A program made the translations under genes and the position numbers. Of a DNA stretch of 64,000 nucleotides, positions 2,862 through 62,400 are shown piece by piece; position 1 is the first letter of the stretch; the number at the start of each line of letters is the position of its first letter. Source of the stretch: Octopus vulgaris (Eukaryota). The notes under the pieces were generated by a model. The model was not told the DNA's origin and did no database searches. It saw only the letters and a list, made by a program, of their open reading frames with translations. The stretch lies in NCBI GenBank assembly GCA_951406725.2, contig OX597818.1:30566001-30630000 (forward strand), written 5' to 3'.

Positions 2862-5616
2862 GTTAGTTAGTTAGTTAATTTTTTGGCTCAAAAAGCAAGG
2901 CCATGTAGGGGGACATGGAGTTATGTACAGGGTGGTGTTCATGTAAAGAGTTCAGGCCACTTGTGGTCAAGGGAGACTTTGAACCGAGCGGTCATTGGCA
3001 TCTTCACTATCTCGTCCGGCAGCTTATTCCACGGACCCGCAACCCGGACAGAGAAAGCCCCTCTCCTTCGATTGAGATGAAATCGTCGCAGATAGAGCTT
3101 TTCGGAGTGACCCCGCAGCCGACGCTGTGGAGCAGGAGTGAAGAACAGCTCTTTTGAGAGGTTACACTTTCTGCTTATGATGTTGTGAGCAAGAATGAGA
3201 TCACCACGGCGTCTGCGTTTTTCTAGAGAATAAATGTCGAGCGTCTTCAGCCTTTCTTCATAAGACAAATGCTTGAGACCAAGAACCATGTAGGTAGCCA
3301 GCTTCTGGACTCTTTCGAGATGCTGTATGTCTTTGAGGAGATAAGGAGAAGAGGCTTGAATCCCGTACTCCAATATGGGTCTCACCAGCGTGACATAGAG
3401 CGGTAGGAATATGGCTGCTGTGAGCATTCCAATTGACCGTCGAATCAAGAACAGAATTCCGCGTGCTTTGTTGGCAGCATGGACGCACTGGGCCGAAGGC
3501 GAAAAGGAGGAATCCACCAAGATACCCAGGTCCTTTACCTGATCGGTCCTCTCCAGCAGCAGACGACCCGGCTCGAAATCAAGTTGAGTTGCAGGAGGAG
3601 AGCCAACAGGCAGATGACAGCACTTTGACACGTTCAGACACAGGTCCCATTTGTTAGACCACCTCCAAATTTGGTGGAGGCATCGACGAAGATCCTCTAT
3701 ATCACCGCGAGGAGCGACCAGTTTGACATTGTCAGCAAATAGAAGGGGGTGTTGTGTGAGGTCGTCGGCCAAGTCATTTATGAAGACTAAGAACAATAAG
3801 GGCCCAAGCACTGAACCTTGAGGCACGCCACTGCTCGCACTGGAGACGTTGGACCGCGAACCATTAACTTGGACTTGGAAGGAGCGATCTGAGAGGAAGG
3901 CACCAACCCATTGTACAATATCCGGATGGAAACTATATGCTTGAAGCTTGACAAGTAATAGGCGGTGGTTTATCAAGTCAAAAGCTTTGGCAAAGTCCGA
4001 TAAAACGATGTCAACAGCATCACTATCATCGAGGATGCGCGTCACCAATTCTTCCATTACCAGTAAGTTGGTCAAGCATGATCCCTTCAGCATGAAGCCG
4101 TGTTGGGAATCAGAGATAGAGGCTGTGTTTTGGAGGTGGAGCATCATACTTTTCTTAAGGATGGTTTCGAACATCTTGCTGATTATTGAAGTAAGGGAAA
4201 CCAGTCGGTAGTTAAGCGGGTCTTCGCGGCTCCCTTTCTTGAAAATTGGGCAGATTATCGCTGTTCTCCAGTCCGCAGGTATAACACCCGTTGCCAATGA
4301 CATATTGAATAGACGTGTTAAAGGCTCGCAGATGACCAGAGCCAACGCTTTGATAACCCGTGGGTGTATGCTGTCAGGGCCGTGACCCTTGTTGACATCG
4401 AGGCCTTGAATAACGCATTTGACTTCGTCCCACGTGATGACCAATCTAAGCATTGGAGGTACCGATCTATGAAATGGAGGGGATTCACGACCATCATCTT
4501 GTTTGAAAATAGTTGAAAAAGCCTCGGCAAATAACTGACTCTGTTGATAAGTGTCCTCAATTGATACGCCTGTTAAGTCTACCAACGTTGCAATCTGGTT
4601 GTTCAAGCGAGAATTCCGTTGGACATGGGCAAAGAAGGTTTTTGGATTGCGACTGGCGTTTGCCGCGATTCTGTATTGATATCTGAAGCGTTCTTCCTTT
4701 TTAATTTTCACGGCTCGGTCTCGTTGAGTTTTGTACACCCCAAAAGCTGCAGTCGAATCTAGATTTTTGAATTCAGCCCAAGCAATATCTCTGAGTCGAA
4801 GTTCTCGTTTAACCTTCTTCGTCACCCAGGGCTTGTGTTTCTTCTTCTTGGGAAGCCCAACGGGAACTGCTTGGTCAGTCAATCAGATTACATATGCTTT
4901 GAGGGTTGATCATAGTTCGTCAACTGAGGACATTGTCATCAGGGATCGCCAGTCCAGAAGCGCGGAAGCCTCGGTTAGAATTTCAAGATTAATTGCAGAG
5001 AAGACTCTACATGGCAGCAAAGTTGTCATGGGCATAGAAAAAGTTGTGTGCATGACGAACTTCAGGACCGCATGATCACTCTTGGCAAGAGGGGCGCACA
5101 CAGATAAGCCTGACACTGATCTTGGATAGCGGGAGAATACCAGATCCAGCATAGATGGCTGCTGCCCAGACCGATGCCTTGTCGGATATTCAACATGTTG
5201 CGATAGAAAACAATCTTCAGCCACGTCAAGAAGGGCCTGGCCGAACCGGGAAGATGATGTACAAATTGATGCGGGCTAGTCAATCGTGGGAGCGTTGAAG
5301 TCTCCTAATATCAAACAGTCATGAGAAGCTGAAACGAATCTTATCGCTTCGAGTAAATGAGCATCGTCCTGGGGGTCGGCAAGAGGCGGCCTGTAGACAG
5401 CTAACACGGGCAGGCAAAACCCGGATAGGCTCAGCTTGCAATAGACGGCATCGAATTTTGTTGTAGGTTGAGCATTAGTGGGTAGAATACCGCTGGATGG
5501 TTTGAGATCAGATTTAACATACACAGCAACACCTCCACCTTGCCTTTATTCTGTCACATCTGAAGAGGGCGTAGCCCTGTAGGTGGATTTCTGAGTCCTT
5601 TACTGCTGGTGTCAGC
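2862..5616 (-). mobile_element. CR1-clade LINE, 5'-truncated (APE endonuclease + RT), inactive
   Basis: RT motifs DFAKAFD, GVPQGSVLGPLLF, FADN, LRGH, WNKLP. APE motifs GYALFRCDR, GGGVAVYV, VYRPP, GDFN, LDL, SDH lie in shifted frames. (TAAC)n 3' tail at 2862-2878. Confidence 0.92.
2939..4882 (-). pseudogene. CR1 ORF2 reverse transcriptase segment (647 aa open, catalytic FADD changed to FADN)
   Basis: ORF track; frameshifted from the upstream endonuclease fragments at 4910-5224 and 5276-5524. Confidence 0.88.
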
Positions 5617-6457
5617 ATATTTCCAAAAGTTTCGGTCAGTAGTCATTGCCTTGGTGAGGCCTAATGTTCGAAGGTCATGCTTCACCACTTCATCCCAGGT
5701 CTTCCTTGGTCTACCTCTTCCACAAGTTCCCTCAACTGTTAGAGTGTGACACTTTTTCACACAGCTATCCTCATCCATTCTCGCCACATGACCATACCAG
5801 TGCAGATGTCTCTCTTGCACACCACATCTGATGGTTCTTAGGTCCAACTTTTCTCTCAAGGTTGTTACACTCTGTCGAGTAGGCACACTGACATTACACA
5901 TCCATCGGATCATACTGGCTTCATTCCTTGCATGCTTATGCATGTCCTCAGTGGTCCTATTTCACTGCTATGTTGCATGGCTGTTCCTACACATGCGTCA
6001 TACAGAGGCCCTTTGTCACCAGCAGAGGTAAGAACTCTCTGAACTTTGCCCAGGCTATTCTTATTCTAGCAGCTACACTTGGTCACCTAGGTAACGGAAG
6101 CTATCAACTACTAGTTTTTCTCCCTGGAATGTGGCGGAAGTTGTTCTCTGCACATTTTCAGTGTTTATTGCTCCTGAGATATATATATATATACGGATAG
6201 TCTGATTCTGTCATTTGTTTCTGATTGTAATTTCGGGGGAGGAGAGGTTGTTCTTCTTTATAATTTCTGAATTTAAATTACAAACATTTTTTTTTGTTGC
6301 TTAAATCCCAGCAACAGACAGCCCTTGGGCACATCACCATTCCATTAAATGTGTTTACCGAGAGAAAAATATTGAAAAATATCAATGCATGTCAGAGTGA
6401 TGAAGAAACGAGGAAGTATTGAAATAATAAACGGAACCAAATGGCAGATTCGAACTG

Positions 6458-15811: not shown

Positions 15812-16400
15812 CATCGTCACCATCCATTAACATCTGTTTTCCATACCCGCATGGGTTGGATGGTTTGACCAGAGTTGCACCAGGTTTCAATCTGATTTGA
15901 CCCGGTTTTTACAGCTGGATGCCCTTCCTAATGCCAACCACTTTACAGTGTGTGCTGGGTGCTTTTAACGTGGCACTGCACAAGTATTTTTATGTGATAC
16001 TAGCATGAGTGCTTTTTGCATGGCACCAGCACTTGCCTCTTGCAGGTCAATCCTCTTCACTAGGAGGAGTGGTCTTAACACTTCTGCTGTAACAGACAGG
16101 TTTTTTTGAATACAGCAAAGCGCTAGGTATTTTGGTCCTTTGTCATCTTGTGTGAAAGGTCCAGTATCCTGAAGTCGTCTTTCAGTACTTTGTCCCTCAT
16201 CTTCTTGTGTCTCCCTCTTCCATCTGTTCCATCCGCTTTGAGAGGTCAACACTTTATGGAGCTGTTGGCATCCATCTGCATTACATGACCAAACCAGTGC
16301 AGTCTTGTCTCTAGTGCACTGCATCTAATTCCTCTTGCACCTGACTTTTCTCTCAAAGCACCAGCACTCTGTCGAACATGTACACTTACATTACACATCA
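15812..16400 (-). mobile_element. RTE LINE 3' fragment
   Basis: MCNVSVHVRQS...RLHWFGHVMQMD plus the degenerate structured 3' tail. Confidence 0.8.
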
Positions 16401-17997
16401 AGTAAAACAAAGTAAGGCAGAATTTCTCTTTTGCAATAGTACAAAATTTAAAATGAGAAGTATCAACCATCTGACATATCTAATTATTTATCATTTTCCC
16501 CCCATCACAACAGCAATATTGTACGTAGTATTTGTTGCTTATTTTCTCATTACTTGCCTCTTACTTGGTAGATGAACCATTAATTAATCTCTCAAATAGA
16601 GAGAAGGGGGAGGCAGAGAGAGGAGGAGTTTTGTGTGTGTAAATAAAAATCATGAAGTTACATGTATCTTCTCTGGAGGATGTACTGTCAAGCTGAAGTA
16701 ATACAAGTTACTAAAAACATTGTTATTGTGTTAATAATAACCAAGGTCTTTCGAACAATCATCTTCTTCACAGCTTGCTAGAAAATCTCTGTGTGTCTGT
16801 GTGTGTGCGTGTTTGGAAATTTTGGCCTACAATGAAAGAATATAGATTTTCTTGGCTTCTTTACAAAATGTATTGCTTCAAGTGAATTACTTATTAACAA
16901 ATTGTTATTTATCCCTCAACTCCCTGGTTAGTTCTGATCAAGCAAACCTATGATTAAAGGCATTCCAGTTATGATCATACCATCCTTTTTAAGTGTATGT
17001 AGGTCTACGTTGTCCCCTGTATCCTTTTCTTTTCCAAAATGCTAGGGTATGATCTGAGGAAAGCAAACATATAGAGACTTTCTCTTATAAGTAAAAATTC
17101 AGATAGAAGCAAATGAATATTTAATGTTCAGCTTTTTTTTATCTATTTTGGGTAACAAATATGTGTCTATTTGTATATTTATGTGTATATACAGTGTGCC
17201 AGGCAACATTTTTATCCTTATGTTTTAGAAAGGAGGGCAGGCAGTGTCCATGACACTTACTGGTCCTCTAAGACAGGTGGGAGGGAGGAAGATATCCTCT
17301 AACTTGAAGGCAGGCCTGAATACTTGCAACAGAATGGACTAGGCTAAAAGCACCTTAGATGCCAGATAGTGATGTTAAGCTGACAGGTCAAGTTTACCAC
17401 TCATGTTGGCCTTGATGAGATCTGAAGTCAGAACACAAAGTACTGGAAGAAACACTGCAAAACATCCTGTCTGATGTTTTCATGGTTCCACCAATCCACC
17501 ACCCTGATTTGGAATTTTTTCTATTTCCATCTTCAAAGGGTGAAAGGCAGAAGAAGGGTGAAGAGTTCAGATCCTCTGCAGGATCTGAACTCAGACTACT
17601 GATAGTTGGAACAAATCCTGCATAGCATTCTGTCTGACACTCTAATGATTCTGTCAATTTCCTGCCTAAACTGAAAACAACAAAACATAATTAAAATATA
17701 CGATATCAGACATAAAAACAATGTGCTTCCAGAAAATAACAGGTTACACATTTAGCTAGATACATCAAGAAAACAAGCTCGTCAGCAAAACTGCCCTTGA
17801 CTCAAATGACGATATTAATGCCTCTATAGAAGTGAGTGGATGCCAGGATCAGGTGGGGTATCTTGCTCCTTCCAACTATGTCCATGACAATGAATCTTTG
17901 GCCCTGTGGAGCCACTGATCAGGCATCCTTGGACGTACTCTAGATACAGCAGTCAAAGTCATTGGGGGGGCACATGTTGGATGTCACATGATAATGA

Positions 17998-18312
17998 ATC
18001 ATCATCATCATCGTTTAACGTCCGCTTTCCATGCTAGCATGGGTTGGACAGTTCAACTGGGGTCTGAGAAGCCAGAAGGCTGCACCAGGCCCAGTCTGAT
18101 CTGGCAGTGTTTCTACAGCTGGATGCCCTTCCTAATGCCAACCACTCCGTGAGTGTAGTGGGTGCTTTTTACGTGCCACCGGCACAGGTGCCAGACGAAG
18201 CTGGCAAACGGCCACGATCGGATGGTGCTTTTTACGTGCCATGGGCACGGAGACCAGATGAGGCTGGCAACGGCCACGATCGGATGGCGCTTTTTATGTG
18301 CCACCAGCACGG
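17998..18312 (-). mobile_element. RTE 3'-tail repeat (3 tandem units)
   Basis: (CAT)n-CGTTTAACGTCCGCTTTCCATGCTAGCATGGG start on +; three GGTGCTTTTTACGTGCCACC-like units. Confidence 0.85.
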
Positions 18313-24546: not shown

Positions 24547-25151
24547 ACTTGGAAATAGATGGGGGTTGGTGATATGGCGTGAAGATTATCTGAATAACTT
24601 AGCTTCAATAAATCAAGAAGAGAGCAGTTTAGAAAATAAACTATCTTTATCTACATTGCAAAATTGAAATTAGTAACTTATAGGACATAAAACTAAAACC
24701 CACTTGTTCTCACCACCACAAAATATTATTCTCTGGTAAAATCATGGGAAAATCAGCATGCTGATGACAGACTGAAGAAGCCCATTTGAAAATGAAAATA
24801 AGCAAATATCACTTAGATAATATAATAAACTACTCTCAGACTATTTTCACTTGGGAATCCTAAATGCTTAAATTATAACTATCATGGATCAGAAGAGTGT
24901 ATTCATAGAATGATGTTTATATTTAGTTTCAGTTCACATGACCTGAACAAATGAGTTTGAGTAAAACCATCCTACCCACCCTTTTAGTAATACACCTACT
25001 GACATGCACACCTGCACAGACACATGGATACTAATAAACATCCACACACACACACACACTACTTGTATACATATGGAACATGTGCATAGCTACATTCTTT
25101 AAGGAGAAAAAAATAATATTGATTTCAGGTATTTTCAATGGTTTCTTTCAG

Positions 25152-25321
25152 CATGGGGATTTGGTTTCTTGTTTGTAACACTTATCAACCTGTGTGCTCT
25201 CTGTGGTGTGGTGGTACTGCCTGTCATGAATACACGTATCTATAAAAAAGTCCTGCTCTTCCTTGTTGCTTTGGCTGTAGGAAGTCTTGCAGGAAGTGGG
25301 CTTCTTGTCCTAATTCCAGAG
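25152..25321 (+). CDS. SLC39A14: ZIP8/14-like exon 3 (TM1-TM2)
   Basis: tttctttcag|CA TGG GGA...CCA GAG|gtaagt; AWGFGFLFVTLINLCALCG...LAVGSLAGSGLLVLIPE; 170 nt, phase 1 to 0. Confidence 0.93.
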
Positions 25322-26249
25322 GTAAGTTATCAAATTTTCAATACTCTTCAAATTTATTTCCTCATGCAGATGGGTTTTTTAAAATGTTCTTTTGTGTGTG
25401 TGTGTATGTTTGTGTGCGCGCGCACAGGAATGCCTGTGTGGTAAGAAGCTTGCTTCCCAATTACATTGTTTTATGTTCAGATCCACTTGGGCAAGAATCT
25501 TCTACTATGGCCCTGATCAAAGCCTTGCGAGTGGATTTGGTTATCAGAAACTGAAAGGAGCCATCGTGTATATGTATGTATGCATGTATGTATACACACA
25601 CAAGAGTGAGCAGACAAATGAAAGAACAGGGCACTCAATACATTTAGTAGGAGTTACATGCATTATTTAAAACAGTTTGATTCAGTTCCGTGCTACAGGC
25701 CCCTAATGGGAAGACTCCTTTAGGTTTCTAAAATGTCAAATTGGCATTCAGCATTCCAGAAACCTGAAGGAGTAGGCTTCCTTGTAGGGGTTTGTGAAAC
25801 TTGAAGTTGCATCGAACTGAATCAAGCTGTTTTAGATAATGTGTGTGGGTGTTTGTGTATGTCCTGCACCACCACTTGATGACCAATATTGATTTGTTTA
25901 TGTCCCTGTAACTTTGCAACTTGGTAAAGAGACTTATTAAATAGGTACTGGGGTCTATTTGTTTGACTAGAATAGCATGGCTGCAGTCCAATGACTGAAA
26001 CAAGTAAAAGATAATATATACATAAAAAAAAAAAATGGAACAAGACCATAACAGGTGACGACAAAACATGGCAAAAGGTAATATGTATATTTGTTTTATA
26101 CTTAGAAGTGATGTATATTACCAGAAATTCCAACATATCAGAAAAGGTTTTCCAAATGTGAAAATGCAATACTGCATCATTTGTGCATATGTGTATATGT
26201 GCAGGTGATGCAATATTACATTTTCACATTTGGAAAATCTTTTCTGATA

Positions 26250-29289: not shown

Positions 29290-29580
29290 ACCATCCGATC
29301 GTGGCCGTTGCCAGCCTCACCTGGCCCCCGTGCTGGTGGCACGTAAAAAGCACCATCCGATCGTAGCCGTTTGCCAGCCTCGTCTGGCACCTGTGCTGGT
29401 GGCACGTAAAAGCACCCACTACACTCACAGAGTGGTTGGCATTAGGAAGGGCATCCAGCCATAGAAACATTGCCAGATCAGACTGGGCCTGATGCAGCCG
29501 TCTGGCTTCCCAGACCCCAGTTGAACCGGCCAACCCATGCTAGCATGGAAAGCGGACGCTAAACGATGATGATGATGATG
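29290..29580 (+). mobile_element. RTE 3'-tail repeat (2 tandem units, well preserved)
   Basis: Reverse complement of 17998-18290; ends in (GAT)n. Confidence 0.88.
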
Positions 29581-31763: not shown

Positions 31764-32496
31764 GTAACAACAAACAAGGTGAGGACATCTATCCATCCAC
31801 TGTAAAAAAAATGTACATAATTCCTCATCTCAAAAATATAGAATAGCAAGTACAAAACTTTGTATGTAATGAAAAGAAATTAATAATTTCACATTAATTC
31901 AGTATGCATGGAATTGGTGTTGGATATGTTTGCTTCTATTATTGGAAAAAGTATTTGGCATCTGGATATTCTTTACCTTGCCAATGACTTAGTAGTGAAT
32001 AGTATAGGAATGACACTGATCTTCAGTTTGGTAGATAAATCTGATGGCATTTGAACTCGAGACTTTGAGGCCAGTCGTGCAACACCGCATTGGTATTTCA
32101 CACTTCTTAGTTATGTTCATGTTAATTAAGATATCTATCATACCTTATAAAATTATAACTTGATAAGTAGGTGCAGAAGCCATAGAATTTCTGAGATGCT
32201 TCCTCAATGGAATCTTTTGGTTAGTACAGTTAGTCTCCAGGTTGAATTGTTGAAGATTGTTTGGAAGGAAAAATGTGAGAATTCAGTTTTGGAACAGAAG
32301 GATTGTGAGAGGTAATTTTTGTATGAGATTTGGAACAGAAAAGCACAATGTGAGAGAAATATATTATATGATATCTCTTCAGATTTGATGATGATATGAT
32401 TGTGTTTAGGATGATGATGGTGCTGACTACAATGATGTTTATGATATACATTATGTTTCATATTTATTTATTTATTTTTTATTTTTTAATCAACAG

Positions 32497-32701
32497 AACA
32501 GTCGTGGAGATTATAATGACTGCATCATTAAAACAAGTAAAAAGAAACCAATCAAAACTGTTGCTTGGATGATTATATTTGGTGATGCTTTGCATAATTT
32601 TATTGATGGCTTGTCCATTGGAGCTGCCTTCACTTCTTCTGTAATGACCGGCATCAGTGTTTCCCTTGCTGTTATTTGTGAAGAACTACCTCATGAATTA
32701 G
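32497..32701 (+). CDS. SLC39A14: ZIP8/14-like exon 7 (TM4-TM5, metal transport site)
   Basis: caacag|AAC...TTA G|gtaaga; [24 protein letters not shown]...CEELPHELG, the HNFxDG and EExPHE signatures. Confidence 0.95.
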
Positions 32702-33329
32702 GTAAGAAACATTATATTTACAAAATGAAGCAGTGGCAAAAAGTTGAGATACATTTTTTAAAATCAAATATAAGTTGTTTTTTTTATTGTTGACTTGACA
32801 TTTTTAAGAGAGAGCTATGATCAATTGAGTTGATCCGAATTAATGTTAGTACTTATTTTATTGACTCTAATAAAATAAAATGATTTTATTTGAAGACAAA
32901 GATAGCTTCTATGGGATGCAGAAGTTTGAAACTAATTACTGTATAGCATGCAGTCTGTTGATCTACTGTTTCAGCCACTATTGCACTGTTCTTAACACAA
33001 AGTAATATAAAGCAAAAATGTAACTAAATAAGAAATGCCTTAATGATACAAGAAATAATTAAACAAAGGGAATAGTTGTACAGTGGCACAAGACCAAAGA
33101 CCTCTAACAGGATAGGTAAAACAACTTTTTTTTCTCTCTTAGAAACCAATTGCCCCTTCTGTTTTGCCAACCACATTGTTCTAGTGCTTAGTGATTGCTC
33201 ATGTATGCACAGTACAATTTATGCTACATGGTACTTCCTGCTTAACATCTAATATATATTGAATGCTGGAATTTGAAAGCTTGATATGAATTGAAGTTAA
33301 CTATTCCATCTATTTTCTCCACTCCCTAT

Positions 33330-34290: not shown

Positions 34291-34689
34291 ATTTATTAAA
34301 TTTTATAATTTATATCTAAAGTAATTCATCCAGCAAATGCTGCTATGGCAAATGGGTGTTAAGATTTAATTTATGACAATGATGATAACAGAAAGCTCTA
34401 TTCTGGAGAATCACAATAAAGAATATGATTACAGCAGAATCCCATTTGGTCATTGTGTTGTGAGGTGTTGATTTAATCCATCTTGTTGACTAAAATCTTT
34501 CTTGAAATTTTAATATTTTCACGAGACACATCAACTGTATTATCTAAAAGCACTATTTAGGATTGTAATCCTATTTCACAAAGGTAATATCTTAACATTA
34601 AAGATTTCCAAAATGGAAATACACTAACTTTCTAATGAATTTTATGTCAATTATCTAATTGGTACTTCATTTCTTATTTTTCTTTGCAG

Positions 34690-34877
34690 GAGATTTTGCT
34701 ATCCTTTTGAATTCTGGCATGACATTAAAAAAAGCTCTGCTCTTTAATTTCTTGTCTGCTTGTATGTGTTATGTTGGTCTTATATTTGGTATTTTATTGG
34801 CTGAAGTTACTGCAGCTCATACTTGGATATTTGGAGTAGCTGGTGGCATGTTTCTCTATATCTCACTTGTAGACATG
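34690..34877 (+). CDS. SLC39A14: ZIP8/14-like exon 8 (TM5-TM7)
   Basis: ttctttgcag|GA GAT...ATG|gtaaga; [10 protein letters not shown]...[18 protein letters not shown]; phase 1 to 0. Confidence 0.95.
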
Positions 34878-35758
34878 GTAAGAATTCAATTTTTTTTGCT
34901 TTGTTTTTCATCATTAATCAATGGTTTTGTTGGAGTTGTAGCAGTCACAAGTCAATTAGTTGGAATTTGGCATGATGAAGATTGTAAAATCAGAACCTGG
35001 CTAAATGAATTCTATAATGAAACACTGTTGGAACAATCAGGCATTTCAGTGTGACACCATTGTTGAGTGATTAGTAGGACACTTTGAGGTGACACCACTG
35101 TAGTGATTTGTAGGGCATCTCATACTAGAGTAAGGATTACATATCTAAGAAGTAACATATCACTGCCATTTAACTTTAACCATAACCTAGCATCACAATG
35201 ATGTAATTAAATTAAAACTACTATGGTTCTTAACCACAAATACTGAAGTTGTTTATGAAATACATTTATAAAATAGCAAATATTTCTGAATTCAGTTAAA
35301 GTGTTAATTGTTTAATCATTCAGGATTAAGTGTAACTATTCTTCAAATTGAGTGTGACACTCAAAGTTAAGTAAATTTGTCAAAATAGATATAATTATCT
35401 GAAGAAAAGCAAATTTCTCCATCAGTAATAGTAAAGCTATGGTTATTTTTCAAGCATTGGCTTTTATGTATTTAAATATGGCTGTCTTTCAAATAAATAT
35501 TTGTGTAATTTGTCAGGGAATAAAACTTCATCAATAATAAAATGATAAAGAATCATAGGATTTATGTTAAGTCTTTCATTTTCAAATTTCTATTGAAATA
35601 CACTGCTTTTATTTCAGTTAATTTTGCCATTATGAAACTGTTGTTAGGAACATAAATTAACGTACAATTTTGATGGGAGGTTTTAATTTAGATCACTATA
35701 AAACAAGAAATATACATCTTAGAACCAGGGTCAGATTTGTTAGTATCAAAAGGGTTAA

Positions 35759-36389: not shown

Positions 36390-37338
36390 CTAGTAATCCC
36401 TCAACTATCGCAGGTGTTACATTCCAAACTACACTGCGATAGGCGAAAATCAGCAAAGTAGAAACAGTATTGTATTGTATATTTATCATTATTATTTTTA
36501 TAATTGGTATCATCATCGTTTAACGTCTGCTTTCCATGCTAGCATGGGTTGGATGATTTGACTGAGGACTAACGAACCAGATGGCTGCACCAGTCTCCAA
36601 TCTGATCTGGCAGAGCTGGATGCCTTTCCTAATGCCAACCACTCCGAGAGTGTAGTGGGTGCTTTTATGTGCCACCAGCACAAGGGCCAGTCAGGCGGTA
36701 CTGGCAACAGCCATGCTCAAATGGTGTTTTTTACATGCCACCTACACAGGAGCCAGTCCAGCGGTACTGGCAACGACCTCGCTTGAATGTTTTTTCATGT
36801 GCCACCAGCACAAGTGCCGGTAAGGTGACGTTGGTAACGATCATGCTCGAATGGTGCTTTTTATGTGCAACCGGCATGGAAGCCAGTTAGCTGCTCTGGC
36901 AACGGTCACGCTCGGATGGTGCTCTTAGCGCTCCACTAGCACTGATGCCAATCATTGAATTTGATTTCGATTTCATTTGCCTCAACAGGTCAACACCACA
37001 CATTCACCTCCTGAGTTTCGTTTTCCATACAGTATGTGCAATTCTTTGTTTACTCACCTACAGTACACTGTATTTTCTTTTAAGATATTTTAATTAATGT
37101 GTTATACAGTGCAGCACTGTACTGTATTTTCATTTATTAGTTTATTAATTTTTAGGCATAAAAATGCTTATTTTACCACAGAAATAATTGAAATCTAAAG
37201 AAATATAAATACCTATCAGCTGCAGAAACCCACAATATACTGAGGAGTCTACAATATAAATTTACATATATTAGCCAGAAAAATCCGCTATGTATGGAGG
37301 GCACGATAGGTGAACCACAATATAGCAAGTGATTACTG
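36390..37338. mobile_element. Tigger/pogo-like non-autonomous element with nested RTE tail
   Basis: Ends TA-C(T)AGTAATCCCTC... and ...GTGATTACTG-TA; RTE tail inserted at 36508-36991. Confidence 0.6.
36508..36991 (-). mobile_element. RTE 3'-tail repeat (5 tandem units, about 65-nt period)
   Basis: Unit starts on + near 36658, 36723, 36789, 36854 and 36918. Confidence 0.88.
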
Positions 37339-52570: not shown

Positions 52571-53037
52571 CAGTAAGTGCTGCCTGATTGGCACCCATGC
52601 TGGTGGCATGTAAAAAGTACCATTCAAGTGTGGATGATGCCAGTGCTGCCTGAATGGCATCTGTACCAGTGGCACATAAAAAGCATCATTCAAGTGTGGT
52701 CAACACCAGTGCTGCCTGACTGACTCCCATGCCGGTGCCACATAAAAAGCACCATTTGAGTATGGTTGATGCCAGTGCCACTTGACTAGCTCACATACCG
52801 GTGGCATGGAAAAAGCACCATTTGAATGTGGTCGATGCCAGTGCCTCTTGACTGGCTCCCATGCCAGTGACATGTAAAAAGCACCCACTACACTCTCAGA
52901 GTGGTTGCCATTAGGAAGGGTATCTAGCTACAGAAACTTTGCCAGGTCCTCCTGGCTTGCCAGTCCTCAATCAAACCGTCCAACCTACGTTAGCATGGTA
53001 AGTGGACGTTAAACCATGATGATGATGATAATGATGA
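52571..53037 (+). mobile_element. RTE 3'-tail repeat with five 66-nt tandem units
   Basis: Unit anchors at 52596, 52662, 52728, 52794 and 52860 (exact 66-nt period); (GAT)n tail. Confidence 0.9.
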
Positions 53038-54819
53038 GTAAGATGTTCAGAAGCATAATGCTTGGAAATATAAAGTACAGGATTTCTGTAGTCCTATTTG
53101 TGAGTAAAAGTACATAGAGTACCTTAACTCAGATGTAGAACAAGTGTACCGTACATTTTACCTGTTTTACATTACTTACATCTACTTATTATTACAATTA
53201 ACATTGGCTTCAAATTTTGGCACAAGGCCAGCAACTTTGGGGGATAGTGTGAATCGATTACCTTGATCCCAGTGCTTGACTGGTACTTATTTTATTGACC
53301 CAGAAGGATGCAAGACAAAGTCAACTGTAGTAAAATTTGAACCCAGAATGTAAAGACAGATGAAATGCCACTAAGCATTTTGCCTGGCATGCTAACAATT
53401 CTGGTGGTTTACTGCCTTAAATTGCTACTCTTAATATAAATTGCATAATTGTTTTGTAGTGTAAACTTTAGTTTTCTTGAAAATTATCAACTATTCATAA
53501 TTAATACTTTTAAGTCAGTATAGTGAGCCAAACAATTATAATTGAGACTTCTGTTTCAATTAAATAATTGTGAAACGGGAAACTTTAGTCCAGTCCTTAA
53601 AACTGATAATGACAGATAGGATCGATAGCACTAAATTCTCAATTAATTAAAATAATTAATGTAGTAAGGGGGAAGAAAACATCATATTGCATGTTCTGGA
53701 TTGGCTGTGGAGAAAGCAAAAAGAAAAACAAGTAACACTATTTAAGTAAGTAAAAAATGTTGCAACATGATTTTACAGTTAGTAGCAGTGATTTGATATC
53801 TGAAACCATGAAATAATCGGTCAGACATGAGTGAACCACTACAGTTTTACATGATCAGTCTATTAAGCAATCAAAAAGTGTGAAGCTGTTGTGTGATTTT
53901 GTTTTCTTGGATTTTCTTTCTTGTACCCTATAGAAGACTGTTATGCTGTTCAATTAGTTGCAGAATGCTGCTGGAAAATGAGCGATTCGTTTCCCTTCTT
54001 GCAAAGCAGAGTATAACTCTGGACATGTTAAGGTCTTATTAGTCCTTCTCAGCAAACTATAACCATTTTTGCACTTGGTGACAAGAAAATCAGTATATAA
54101 ATGTACAATAATGTACATGAATTGGCATGGCATTGTATCACGACATCATAATTAAAAAAAAAAACTCAGAAAACGCAAAAAATAAAAAAAAAGATCTAAA
54201 AGCATTTAAGTTAGTGAGAAAGTACTTCAGATATATTTAAATATTAGGTTTGGGGCTAATGTTTTCTTTCGTTCACTATATGCGCAGTTCTAATTTTGTC
54301 GACATAATTTAGATGTGATAGCAAGGGAAGGAAACAAAGATCGTGTTCTTAAACCAAATAATTCTTTTTATGACAATGATAGATGTTGAAATTTTTTGAA
54401 CCTATCCTTGAAGAACCGATATTCCTCATTATACGAAAAAAGGGAATGACGTTATATTTATGAAATTTTAACGGTGATTATTCAAGTAAGTAAAGCAAAC
54501 TGGTTTCAACACGAAATTTCTCTCTTCCAGTTGCTATTGTTAAACATAATATTGTTAAGCATAACAGTATCCAAGAGACAGGGGTAGATAACTGATCGGT
54601 ACAGAAATTCTAAAATGCAGGGGCAATAACCAATTGAAACAATACCTACGAAGTAATGAGTCTTATCGCCGAGCAGTCAACTGAATGTAGGTCAGTTTAC
54701 AATTTTATTAATTCATAAAAGTTATGTATTTCAAAAAACACATAATAAATTTAAAAAAAATATATTACTTAAATACAAACTGAAATTAATGTGATAAATA
54801 TTTCTAGTCAAATGATAGC

Positions 54820-56069: not shown

Positions 56070-57530
56070 ATGCCGTTTTCGATGTTTTTAGTCTATCTGC
56101 ATCTACCACTTCTTAGTCACACTTATGTGTTCGTGTGGCTCACCTTGGAAATTTTGGATACCTGTGCGGAACCGAATATACTTGTCCAAAGAACCGGACT
56201 TGCTATTATGAATTGTTTTGTGTATCTTTTGCAATTCTGTCTTCAGGGATGGATCAACTTGAGGACTGAAAAGGATTCTGTTGCGTTTGGGACATGTAAA
56301 AACGATTATGGTCAGATAGAGGGTTCGAAACTGTCTGTCTAATTCTGCATCATCACATCCCAGCTATACTCATCTAAGACATGGACGATGACACATTTAA
56401 ATATTTGAGAAATTTAATCAGATGTGTCTAAGATATATATTCACCATCATCTAGATATCTTTTACACCTGTTAAAAGTACTGGGAAAGCTAGATAATGTC
56501 CATATGTAAACTTGCCTCATCAAATACTATTGGTATCAGTCATGTCATCAATTTTGATGATGTCATGCTTCCAAAGTGATTACTCTAATTGCTTCTCAGA
56601 AAATATCCCCAACACAAACCAAAAATGATTATAGCATTACCAAAAATGGTCTTAAGTTCTTGAACATCAGCATTGTTCATTGGGAATATCTTGCATTGAA
56701 CAAAAATGAATGGCTGTCTGTAATAATGAACACTAGCATGCAGTGAGAAAATTCAATTTGACCATGTGATGAAAGATGATCTTCAGATGTGGAGTCTCAC
56801 GGAGGCGATATGATTGAAACTTTTGTTGATTTGTTGAGAAAACATGTCATCATCTTCCTCATCATCATCAGTTAACGTCCGTTTTCCATGCTGGTATGGG
56901 TTGGGCTGTTTGACTGATGTCTGGAGAGCCAGTGGCTGCACCAGGCTCCAATCTGATCTTGCAATGTTTCTACAGCTGAATGCCCTTCCTAACACCATCC
57001 ACTCTGAGAGTGTGGTGGGTGCTTTATACATGCTGCCAGCACAGGAGCCAGTCAGGTGGGCCTGGCATTGATCACATTCGGATAGTGCTTTTTATGTACC
57101 ACCGGCATGGGGGGGGGGCAGTCAGTGGGTACTGGCATTGGTCATGTTCCATGTTCAGATGGTGCTTTTTACATGCCACCAGCACGGGTGCCAGTCAGGG
57201 GTTACTGGCATTGGCCATGTTCGGATGGTGCTTTTTGAAATTGTAGTTGTGGTCAGTACCAGTGACACATAAAAGGCACCTGGTACATTTTGTGGGGTGG
57301 TTGGCATTAGTAAGGGCATCCAGCTGTAGAAACCAATCCAAAACCAACTAGAGCCTGATGCAGTTCTCAGGCTTACCAATTCCACTCAAACTGTCTAACC
57401 CATGCCAGTGTGGAAAATGGACACATAATGATGATGATGATGAATGCTTGAACACTCTGCATGGTTAGAGGATTCAGAGATAATCTTACCTGCACAGTCT
57501 GTGGTCATATTACATCATGTAAATCATCCA
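56070..57530 (+). mobile_element. Degraded RTE (BovB-like) 3' fragment interrupted by two RTE tails
   Basis: 56655-56715 matches 13700-13765; resumes at about 57485 (CCTGCACAGTCTGTGGTCAT, matching 13871). Confidence 0.6.
56858..57442. repeat. Inverted pair of RTE 3' tails (56858-57236 minus, 57255-57442 plus); more copies at 57858-58020 (+) and 58517-58778 (-)
   Basis: (CAT)n at the left end, (GAT)n at the right end, homologous arms. Confidence 0.85.
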
Positions 57531-59401: not shown

Positions 59402-62400
59402 TCTTCTTCTATATCTATAAAACTCAAAATGCATGCCTATGTGTATGCTTTTTATACATTTCCACATTTTTCATCCGATTTTGATGAAATTTTTTTTATT
59501 AAGTGACAAATTTACCCAATCAGGTCACTGTTGCATTACTGATACCAAGAGATACCCACTTCTGGGGAGAAAATCGATAAAACTGAAGCCCCCCCCACTT
59601 TAAAAAAAAAAAAGGCAAAAGTTGCACGCAAGAAAAGTTTTTACAGGAATGTCCAATTTTTATAATTTTAGTGTCAAAAAGACCGTCATGTTGCGACATT
59701 TCAGACAAATATTTTGGCACAGCCTTGGGGCTTCTGATTCCCAAGAAAATTATGAAAAACTTTGAAAAAAATCGATTTTTCGCATTTTTGCAAAGTTACA
59801 CAGTAGAAAACTTTTTACTGGAAAGTCTGATTTCCTTGGGTTTTATGGCTAAAAAACCACCATGTAACAGCGGTTCTATCAAGTATCTGTTCTATGTCCA
59901 AAGGCATCCCTGTGTGACAAAAAATCACGAAAAACTGAAAAAATTGATTTTTTTCAAGTTTTGCATCTTGAAAATGGCCAAACAGTCTACTTCTCCAGCT
60001 CTAATGTTGTTCAGCTTGTACAAGAACCCAAGGCCACCATGCTCATTTCCTTCTTCAAACTAAGCACCAGTGACCCCTTCGCCAAAACCCTCCTGTGTCC
60101 CCAGGTTCCATCATATTATATTTGGAAAATGAAAACACGCATTTGGGAATCAAGGAAACAAGGATAACCCATCGAGGGACAACCAAACTTAAAATCTTTT
60201 CCCACCCTTGGAAGAGTTTATACAGTTCGCCCTTACCAACAGGAATGATTTTACCTTCGTCTACTGCTGCACGAGGTCATGGGACTGACATTTTTTGACA
60301 ACCTGAAAAGCTTTGATGGTGAAGTTTTTGCAACATAATGTGAAGCCTGCCTTAAACGTAGCCTGCTAGATGGTGGTGCTCAGTGGGATGCAACAATGGT
60401 GGAAGCAGCTACAATATGTTCGGTGAGGAGTCTTCGAAAGCTCTCTGCAGTGCTACTGCAAACATGTGAACTCAGTGATCCTGTAACCTTATGGGAGAAA
60501 TACAAGGAAGACCTTTCAGAGGACTACCACCAAAAAGGACAACTTCTGTTGCCTCACTTGAACATCGGTTTCAACGATGACTTCTTCAACAGAGCACTCA
60601 TCAACATTGAGGATAACCTACTTACTGCTGGCAGTAACAACCTTTTATTTCATGGTCTACCAAAAGTCAGTAGAACAGGCTCGCACACACTACCAACAGG
60701 CATTATTCAGGAAACAGCCTATGATGTCAGTGTCCTTCAACAATACATTGACGAAAATGAGCCAAAGTTGCTTCAGGACCAGCAGCACACATACAGCGCT
60801 GTCTACACTTCAATTCGTGAATGCAAAGGAGGTATTTTCTTTTTAGATGCCCCAGGAGGAACTGGTAAAACATTCGTGACTAAACTCCTCCTTGCAAAAG
60901 TACGCCAGCAAAAGGGGGTCACTTTAGCTGTAGCTTCTTCCGGAATTGCTATGACTCTACTGCCCAGGAGTAGGATGGCTCATTTGACCTTCAATGCTTC
61001 TGTGTCTGACTCAGCTACCTGCAATATTACAAAAGACTCAGACAAAGCAGAAGTGCTGCGAAGGTGCCAGCTCATTATTTGAGATGAATGCATTATGACA
61101 CATAAAGGATCTCTTGAAGCACTGGACAGGACCCTTAAAGGCATCAGGGGCTGTATTAACCCCATGGGAGGTGTTTCCCTCCTGCTGCCTGATGATTTCA
61201 GATAAACCCTACCCATAATTCCAAAAGGCACCAGAGCCGATACTGTAATGGCTTGCATTAAGTTATCTTCCCTGTGGCAGGACGTGACAATTTTGATTCT
61301 TACAACAAACATGAGGGCCCAGCTTTTCGGCGACAACTTATAGGGTGACTTCTCCAAGCAACTTCTCAGTGTTGGTGGTGGTACAGCTTCCTCCAATGCA
61401 GCTGGAGAGATGACTGTCTCACACATAGGCACACCTATGGACCTTACAGCAGCTGTTTCTCCTGATCTGCACATAAACTACCAAAACCTGAATTGGCTGT
61501 GCGAAAGAGCCATATTAGCTCCCAAAAACACATTTGTTGTGAAACCAAATGAAAACCTACTGTGAAGCCTTCTTGGAAACTTTTACACCTACAAATCTGT
61601 GGACCAAGAAGAGGCTTTTAATTTTCCCACAGAATTCCTCAATTCCTTGGACCCCTCCTGACTACCACCTCATCAACTGCGCCTCAAAATTGGAGCTTCG
61701 GTCGCAATGGAATGCAGTTTGTGGTAAAAAAATGTGCTGCCTCTTGTTATTGAAGCAACAATTCGTATGGGTTGTGGTATCAGAAACATCTTTATACCCA
61801 GGATACCTCTTACTCCATCAGATAAGCAATGCCTCTGTCCCTTGTGTTGATTTAAGTTCCCTCTTCAACTTTTCTTTTGCCATGTCCATCAACAAGTCCC
61901 AAGTCAAACACTAACAATGACAGGCCTCCATTTAGGCCAACCATGCTTCTCGCTCAGCCAGTTATATGTCAGATGCAAAAAAAACCTTTTCATGTTTCCC
62001 CTGAAAGCCAAAATGAAAAATGTTGTCTAATGTGAGGTGCTGTAGGCCATCCAACATACTGCAGCTTCCCTGCCAAACAGGTTTATAGTGAGCGAGTACT
62101 ATTGTTGCCATTCTTTCGAAATTACCTGTTTTCCTTAAGTCTTTTTTTATATTCTGTCTGTTACAGTTTCTCAATCTCCTTGTAGATGGCTTGAGTTTTG
62201 GCCTCACTGCACCCACTGCTTTACATATGAACGAAAAAGGACGTTTATACCTGTGAACGGTTAACAATCCTTTTCAGGGCTATTGTGAGAACGATAGCAT
62301 GGCCCTTTTTAGGGCTACTTCACATTCACTTGTTGCACCTCCTGAGATGCTCTTGTGGCTTCTCCAGGGCTTTTCACCCTGTTGTTACTACTTTATTTAT

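Follow-up and report, generated by a model that had tools for sequence, protein, structure and literature searches.

A variable tandem array at the 3′ end of an octopus RTE-type LINE: probable origin from a captured leader-plus-tail cassette, and a covarying leader domain in its relatives

Variable tandem units are familiar inside retrotransposons: the variable number of tandem repeats (VNTR) of SVA and the 5′ monomers of L1 are GC-rich, differ in number and form higher-order repeats. Luteoviral frameshift pseudoknots combine a 5-bp stem 1, a short stem 2 and a 7-nt A-rich loop 3. Bipartite derivatives of RTE elements are known in which a piece of the 5′ untranslated region (UTR) is fused to the extreme 3′ end (Kojima, 2018, PMC5786205); tail exchange between elements is documented, and leader pieces are kept in the bodies of RTE-derived short interspersed elements (SINEs) (PMC5786205; Kojima, 2020, PMC7245038). 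A microsatellite 3′ end is typical of RTE (PMC6007223), and ribozymes of the hepatitis delta virus (HDV)-like and twister types occur at the 5′ ends of non-long-terminal-repeat elements, where they have been proposed to act also as internal ribosome entry sites (IRES) (PMC6765202; PMC8501958). The present analysis concerns a tandem array behind the open reading frame (ORF) of a long interspersed element (LINE) in Octopus vulgaris; "the window" is the 64,000-nt stretch analysed, and its positions count from the first letter. We take the LINE to belong to the RTE clade from features of its ORF.

The array-bearing region is not the native 3′ UTR of this LINE. The account that we somewhat favor is that the array is a variable tandem repeat derived from a captured leader-plus-tail cassette, in which a core was duplicated and the extra copies are likely dispensable. 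Beside this finding stands a stronger result, an RTE leader domain that covaries and keeps a fixed spacing to the start codon. Behind the ORF stop the element has a unique UTR, then the array, a hairpin, the leader domain, the terminal stem-loop and finally (ATG)n. One 5′-truncated, old and decayed copy carries the following features.

52572..52577 (+), second copy 53037-53042: possible target-site duplication, weak, 6 bp only
52576..52885 (+): tandem array of five 66-nt units, each a spacer with a GCCAG hairpin plus a 26-nt core, called by Tandem Repeats Finder (TRF)
52596-52621, 52662-52687, 52728-52753, 52794-52819, 52860-52885 (+): the five cores, read within that array
52891..52903 (+): short hairpin separating terminal core and leader domain
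52905..52929 (+): RTE leader domain in decayed form (the conserved domain has two stacked stems and an AGGGCA loop)
52976..53012 (+): 3′-terminal stem-loop, relic of an RTE ORF end and likely recognition site of the reverse transcriptase (RT)
53016..53036 (+): (ATG)n microsatellite end

TRF assigned the array a period of 66, 4.7 copies and 77% matches, and this call and the five located cores bear out the original prediction of five units at a 66-nt period. All nine core pairs are intact in one of the five units, and stem 2 is whole in three. A covariance model of the leader domain matches 52894-52960 at 16.9 bits (E 0.018). Further copies in the window are listed here.

29329..29354 (+): of the internal cores in the window, the one best preserved (5-bp stem 1, 1-nt loop, 4-bp stem 2 and an A-rich loop of 7 nt)
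29392..29416 (+): a young copy's terminal core, against which variation between runs was scored
29425..29491 (+): leader domain in good condition, following the array (53.3 bits, E 1e-13; this row helped to build the model)
17998..18312 (−): young three-unit copy with a 62-nt period
36509..36990 (−): another copy with five units, which includes some of the UTR before the array
15958..16033 (−): array of the old type, three units of 24-26 nt that consist of the core alone, with C at core position 11
16099..16413 (−): decayed RTE ORF end immediately upstream of that array (tblastn, residues 943-1048, 46%, E 3e-25)

The unit at 29329-29354 reads as it was first written down. The GCCAG/CTGGC hairpin of the spacer is also present, and in four public runs (61,900, 47,966, 1,008 and 457 contigs; organisms C-F) only its loop letters (29379-29382) vary; at 29422-29434, homologous to the short hairpin listed above, variation is confined to the 3-nt loop. 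BLAST and hidden Markov model searches count 15 to 19 tails of the LINE family and related families in the window, where about 15 had been predicted. Two copies, 56853-57236 (−) and 57277-57443 (+), lie head to head and inverted, 40 nt apart; the pair could form double-stranded RNA, a possible editing substrate.

Genome-wide, a query with the ORF end returned 56,853 first-look candidates. In 30 fetched loci a unique stretch follows the stop and the array comes next, with 24 of the 30 extending to the tail; the array thus lies behind the stop of an endonuclease-RT ORF, as its assignment to an RTE 3′ UTR had supposed. The (ATG)n end is seen in the window and in the fetched loci. An intact single frame of 1051 aa at L143:4939-8094 encodes an endonuclease, an RT and a PHD-like insert (matches to PF03372/PF14529 and PF00078, and a weak PHD match). 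Among 131 evenly spaced 10-kb stretches (1.31 Mb) of the 2.8-Gb genome, 159 tails were found, 79 with a core and 53 with at least two, which extrapolates to ∼1.7e5 core-bearing copies and ∼1.1e5 copies with two or more units. The units fall into three period classes, 25-26, 61-63 and 65-68 nt, so that the predicted period of 63-66 nt describes them in part. The predicted maximum of five units is exceeded: 38 ORF-linked copies carry 2-17, and a single-locus expansion (L149, G000:C10:105369300-105371125) holds at least 23 homogenised units. Young copies differ by a two-unit higher-order repeat. Period and sequence go together, periods of 25-27 nt with C at core position 11 (10 C and 0 G among 16) and periods of 60-68 nt with G (91 G and 1 C among 100); the change from C11 to G11 shifts one pair from stem 1 to stem 2.

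The origin of the region was approached through relatives of the LINE. Its ORF has 1341 homologous proteins at E 1e-3 or better, and 80 metagenome and 8 genome-collection loci of relatives were fetched; distant relatives are those with 42-55% protein identity. The ORF of the relatives extends into the tail, leaving a 3′ UTR of 0-100 nt, whereas the stop and the cassette of the octopus LINE are 310-1247 nt apart in 24 loci; the very short 3′ UTR typical of RTE is thus lacking here. The terminal two-stem fold of the LINE is shared, with changed letters, by the relatives and ends the ORF in L162, L164, L166 and L170. The hairpin domain that follows the array here is a 5′ leader motif in the relatives. 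The cassette therefore joins, as bipartite elements do, a 5′ UTR piece (the domain of 12 leaders) to a 3′-terminal piece (the stem-loop of ORF ends). The short 3′ UTR of the relatives, together with the domain, and in two cases the core, in their leaders, makes cassette capture likely. Capture by tail exchange is further suggested by the LINE ORF, which ends without the ancestral tail, and by old copies carrying the same one-core cassette behind different upstream sequence. In these old one-core copies the cassette lies behind a different, pyrimidine-rich sequence, and a sense ORF is found within 1.5 kb in 0 of 13 rows. Two old arrays of 26-nt units directly follow ORF ends.

In the proposed course of events, the LINE would have acquired its 3′ end as a bipartite RTE cassette of leader and tail, the leader part coming along with the tail. 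The core, likely an H-type pseudoknot, would then have been duplicated, likely by slippage, and the extra copies are likely dispensable. Units may be gained and lost when short direct repeats within them mis-anneal, either in the course of reverse transcription or afterwards at the DNA level; the repeats make slippage possible, and there are deletions in which the end of the spacer is joined to the core's last strand. The terminal stem-loop and (ATG)n would serve priming and RT recognition, and a role of the microsatellite at the RTE 3′ end has been described (PMC6007223).

The front end of the LINE differs from that of the relatives in that no leader domain occupies the leader position in 30 N-terminus loci or in L143; the eight domain matches in those loci are antisense, 1.2-1.4 kb off with their own tail, in a 3′ UTR, or weak. 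In 28 of 30 copies (L249-L278) a pyrimidine tract ending in CAG/G, resembling a splice acceptor, precedes the ORF, 70-85 nt before the endonuclease start (for example L253 and L266). Directly behind this site stands ATA in one subfamily and ATG in the other, so the start of the ORF may be supplied by an exon further upstream or by a non-AUG codon. One subfamily (L249, L253 and L257, 1-1210) has a 5′ region of tandem ∼650-bp monomers, which resemble the promoter monomers of L1, and another subfamily (L274) has shorter ones. With a new promoter region and a splice-acceptor-like site before the ORF, we infer that the cassette is needed mainly for its terminal stem-loop.

The leader domain was then characterized in the relatives. 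With SINE and bipartite instances and chance matches excluded, 12 instances with a downstream ORF were counted on 11 contigs. The first in-frame ATG lies at +42, 42, 42, 47, 46, 44, 48, 40, 62, 46, 52 and 43 from the domain, that is, within 40-52 nt in 11 of 12 instances and at +62 in one; a conserved structure at a fixed distance before the AUG, as looked for in an IRES-like element, is thus present. The two stems are paired in 98.2% of 112 cells (16 rows), and double changes occur at four of seven pairs. The structure scores 0.448 against 0.205 for shuffled rows, a value favored by the structure having been read off the same 16 rows that were scored; none of 500 shuffles reaches it and no slid register comes close. 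Run over the 88 relative loci, the covariance model found no new leaders. Judged from sequence, the domain is a candidate small translation-initiation or ribosome-binding element, which in the relatives may well position the ribosome on an uncapped or co-transcribed RNA. A 25-nt covarying domain at a fixed AUG distance offers a direct test of two questions: how a LINE with a single ORF initiates translation, and for what reason some of the 5′ UTR persists in RTE-derived SINEs.

The domain is also carried by elements with no ORF of this kind behind it. A SINE of this genome headed by transfer RNA (tRNA), often in tandem (L333, L326, L334, L336-L338), has the domain in its body without the core, and in other animals the same domain is found in bipartite elements and a tRNA-SINE (L230, L195, L199, L204, L232; L279/L283/L286). 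Searches of the viral collection gave no match by pattern or protein. Bacterial genome bins L241-L244 contain animal-type RTE elements and SINEs, likely as eukaryotic contamination. The leaders at L170:70-200 and L241:3900-3985 contain tandem duplicates of their own upstream hairpin module (∼62 nt in L170), which indicates that the leader region duplicates in other lineages too. The contig of L169 starts (1-30) with a stretch, cut by the contig end and without an Rfam match, that resembles the loop of an HDV-like ribozyme. Rfam searches of 12 loci gave nine weak, unrelated matches. The absence of an Rfam ribozyme match in the window and these loci and the scattered 5′ ends of copies argue against a self-cleaving ribozyme of the HDV-like, twister or hammerhead type.

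The 26-nt core itself occurs in two of ten assessable leaders, L169 and L179, two further leaders being cut by contig ends. The spacing from core to domain is 44-45 nt in these two and 46 nt in the LINE. L169 (48% protein identity) falls in the same clade as the LINE (support 100/99) in an RT tree of 27 rows that contained no named RTE reference, and its core layout was found in 4 of 500 shuffles; L179 (42%) belongs to a different clade. A GGTG stem-loop at a similar place in L164, L193 and L241b was not counted, as nested hairpins fold equally well there, nor were loose pseudoknot matches in the remaining leaders, which appear in 5-65% of shuffles.

In its intact form the core probably folds as a pseudoknot. 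The loop of stem 1 is complementary to a 3′ strand and loop 3 is A-rich, as in the H-type layout. The compact layout, defined as two stems totalling 9 bp or more, a loop 1 of 1-2 nt and an A-rich loop 3, arose in 0 of 1000 dinucleotide shuffles of the unit without G-U and in 1 of 1000 with one G-U allowed. Across 12 hand-picked rows, 86% of 108 cells are paired. Four haplotypes that break stem 2 recur in internal units, in 15, 12, 6 and 5 elements, and in 0 of 195 terminal units at a 4-element cut-off, in a sample biased toward the query sequences used. The folding energy of the whole copy is ordinary (z −0.26), and in old arrays long nested hairpins win in sequence context.

It is possible, if less likely, that stem 1 alone forms, giving a 5-6-bp hairpin with a GGUG loop, the CACC being merely inherited and the array a hairpin VNTR. 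Every double-sided change falls in stem 1, at three of its five pairs, two of these resting on L169 and L179 only and one being of CpG type. Double mutants at stem 2 are few genome-wide: pair 9/24 has 18 (C-G 6, G-T 1, unpaired 11), where a crude neutral estimate is 94, and pair 8/25 has 66, where it is 722. They show neither an excess nor a pairing bias beyond transitions. Two penalty sets put the knot at −5 to −7 or −11 to −14 kcal/mol and the best nested fold at −5 to −7; the harsher set gives −7.1 for the knot and −6.9 for the nested fold, and one nucleotide crossing a 4-bp stem 2 is tight. Variation in the four runs nevertheless speaks for the knot. In the terminal core, variation of at least 8% is confined to positions 5, 6, 15 and 22 and to loop-3 length: position 5 changes to G-U, position 6 takes all four letters, position 15 keeps its pair, and none of the eight stem-2 positions varies at this level. 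At the loop-1 base, A or G accounts for 23-35% of depth, and because this base takes all four letters the rival triloop or 6-bp hairpin is broken. In C11 arrays stem 2 is the stronger helix (−11 against −4 to −5 kcal/mol), and L169 and L179, in which two stem-1 pairs are changed on both sides, retain the A-rich loop and every one of the four pairs of stem 2, with G-U at one or two of them.

Several observations weigh against the favored account of a captured cassette with a duplicated pseudoknot core. Stem 2 shows a double change at none of its four pairs, G-U changes only, so that the predicted H-type pseudoknot gains covariation support for stem 1 and not for stem 2. A plain 6-bp hairpin scores 0.303 on the same rows, the knot 0.219. 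More variants are expected in internal units anyway, since each lineage has one terminal unit and several internal ones. The core layout is missing from eight of the ten assessable leaders, and L179 fails the strict layout filter and sits in another clade. A parent RTE with this exact leader was found in 0 of 30 fetched loci, out of 52 matches in this genome. The core is kept in three independent array classes, which could mean selection for more copies. On balance, extra units appear to be tolerated rather than required, and they behave like a VNTR.

The main rival is a residual role in ribosome binding or 3′ enhancement. The cassette might still bind ribosomes or initiation factors, as a 3′ translation enhancer or as a tether that lets new RT load, with more cores giving more binding; this we consider doubtful. 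A precedent is the Alu domain, which holds its RNA at the ribosome so that fresh L1 RT loads. The domain keeps its pairs in the octopus LINE (variants at 29440, 29460 and 29461 all preserve pairing as G-U), and tRNA-headed SINEs and bipartite elements in several animals have kept it with no ORF downstream. Three period classes of array have arisen, and terminal cores show no recurrent loss of stem 2. The SINEs, however, keep the domain without the core, and internal units with a broken stem 2 have spread in young subfamilies. A broader version, which strikes us as unlikely, holds that a ribosome-recruiting RNA, covarying and very small, is present in RTEs throughout animals; it would comprise a pseudoknot, a hairpin, the GGG-loop domain, an A/C-rich landing zone and an AUG at a fixed distance. 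SINEs would have kept this RNA in order to stay on ribosomes and capture newly made RT. The 3′ copies in this LINE would be a tunable translation enhancer, and the multiplied 3′ pseudoknot would have driven one of the largest repeat expansions of the genome. A mini-ORF in the cassette was considered and rejected, ATG occurring in 5 of 145 scored tails, at +27 instead of +40-52 and in inconsistent frames.

Less likely still is the function first suggested for the array, a tobamovirus-like row of pseudoknots in place of poly(A), with stability, exonuclease blocking or translation scaling with unit number; we regard it as quite improbable. The layout is tandem and pseudoknot-like, AATAAA is present in 0 of 176 young tails of an element that ends in (ATG)n, and the corresponding domain of tobacco mosaic virus takes part in translation and replication (PMC4683447). 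Relatives that share the microsatellite end, however, need no array, and the module derives from a leader. Unit number is free (2-17) and broken stem 2 recurs, where a tobamovirus-type row would keep a conserved number of intact knots. The array also lies ∼165 nt upstream of the end, so that the last 165 nt with the terminal stem-loop would be left unprotected from 3′ decay, and the 5′ ends of truncated copies scatter over the unit. Of 54 young copies, 36 end inside the array, and by eye many start at core positions 1-5; this mapping was not used as evidence of an exonuclease stop, because the boundaries overshoot into flanking microsatellites and the first letters of the core share microhomology with them. 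RT recognition, also suggested for the array, is better assigned to the separate terminal stem-loop common to the relatives. That the unit acts as DNA, a multimerised transcription-factor site, is highly improbable: many units hold an E-box-like or hypoxia-element-like hexamer across core positions 11-16, which a young subfamily and both leader homologs lack while keeping the pairing.

The window lies mostly in an intron of a ZIP zinc-transporter gene, three tested exons of which match PF02535. In the stretches 2939-4882 (−) and 5554-5961 (−), a 647-aa RT frame from another LINE family is flanked by RTE pieces, an ORF end on one side and a 3′ UTR remnant at 2526-2850 on the other; the arrangement suggests a nested insertion. 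No Rfam match and no tRNA gene were found in the window. Two other features were annotated.

7355-35054 (+): ZIP zinc transporter host gene (exons ∼25103-25444, 32410-32793 and 34659-35054)
60339-61082 (+): PIF1-like helicase fragment, likely of a Helitron

The array marks ∼1e5 insertions with at least two units in this genome and would represent an autonomous LINE rebuilt by capturing a bipartite cassette. A defined leader element has practical use, since work is under way to engineer the UTRs of RTEs for inserting genes by way of RNA (PMC13708176). The full texts searched contain no account of the array, core or domain and none of four motif strings. In the text covered from three octopus repeat papers (PMC9115989, PMC13282606, PMC8967140), the word "pseudoknot" does not occur and nothing on such a UTR is found. 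The LINE family itself is very likely already in repeat libraries, and Repbase or Dfam entries, or the primary paper on HDV-like ribozymes in RTE leaders, may already show the domain.

Among described elements, the LINE resembles RTE-2_OV of octopus brain (Petrosino, 2022, PMC9115989), a single-ORF RTE-clade LINE with endonuclease, RT, zinc finger and ∼600-nt UTRs. Compared by description, RTE-2_OV has 1109 aa and a mostly microsatellite 3′ UTR, unlike the LINE studied here with its 1051 aa, PHD-like insert and array. In the bipartite RTEs of Kojima the fused pieces form the derivative; the octopus LINE is autonomous and has the cassette as its 3′ end, with tandem amplification of one part. 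The domain also differs from the one shown in those papers: the covered part of the supplement of PMC5786205 has 76 matches to Ceph-type motifs and none to the motif of this domain. Like the leader ribozymes, the domain is a structured leader RNA of RTE-type elements with a proposed link to translation initiation, but it matches no Rfam ribozyme and lies near the AUG rather than at the 5′ end. The LINE core shares the 5-bp stem 1, short stem 2 and 7-nt A-rich loop 3 of luteoviral frameshift pseudoknots; unlike these, the array lies outside any ORF, after the stop, with no slippery site. As in the upstream pseudoknot domain of tobamoviruses, several small pseudoknot-like units stand upstream of a structured non-poly(A) 3′ end. 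The tobamovirus domain has a fixed number of units and a tested function, whereas the LINE array has from 1 to more than 20 and a leader origin. In behavior the array resembles the SVA VNTR and the L1 5′ monomers, from which it differs in that its unit is built round a conserved structured core.
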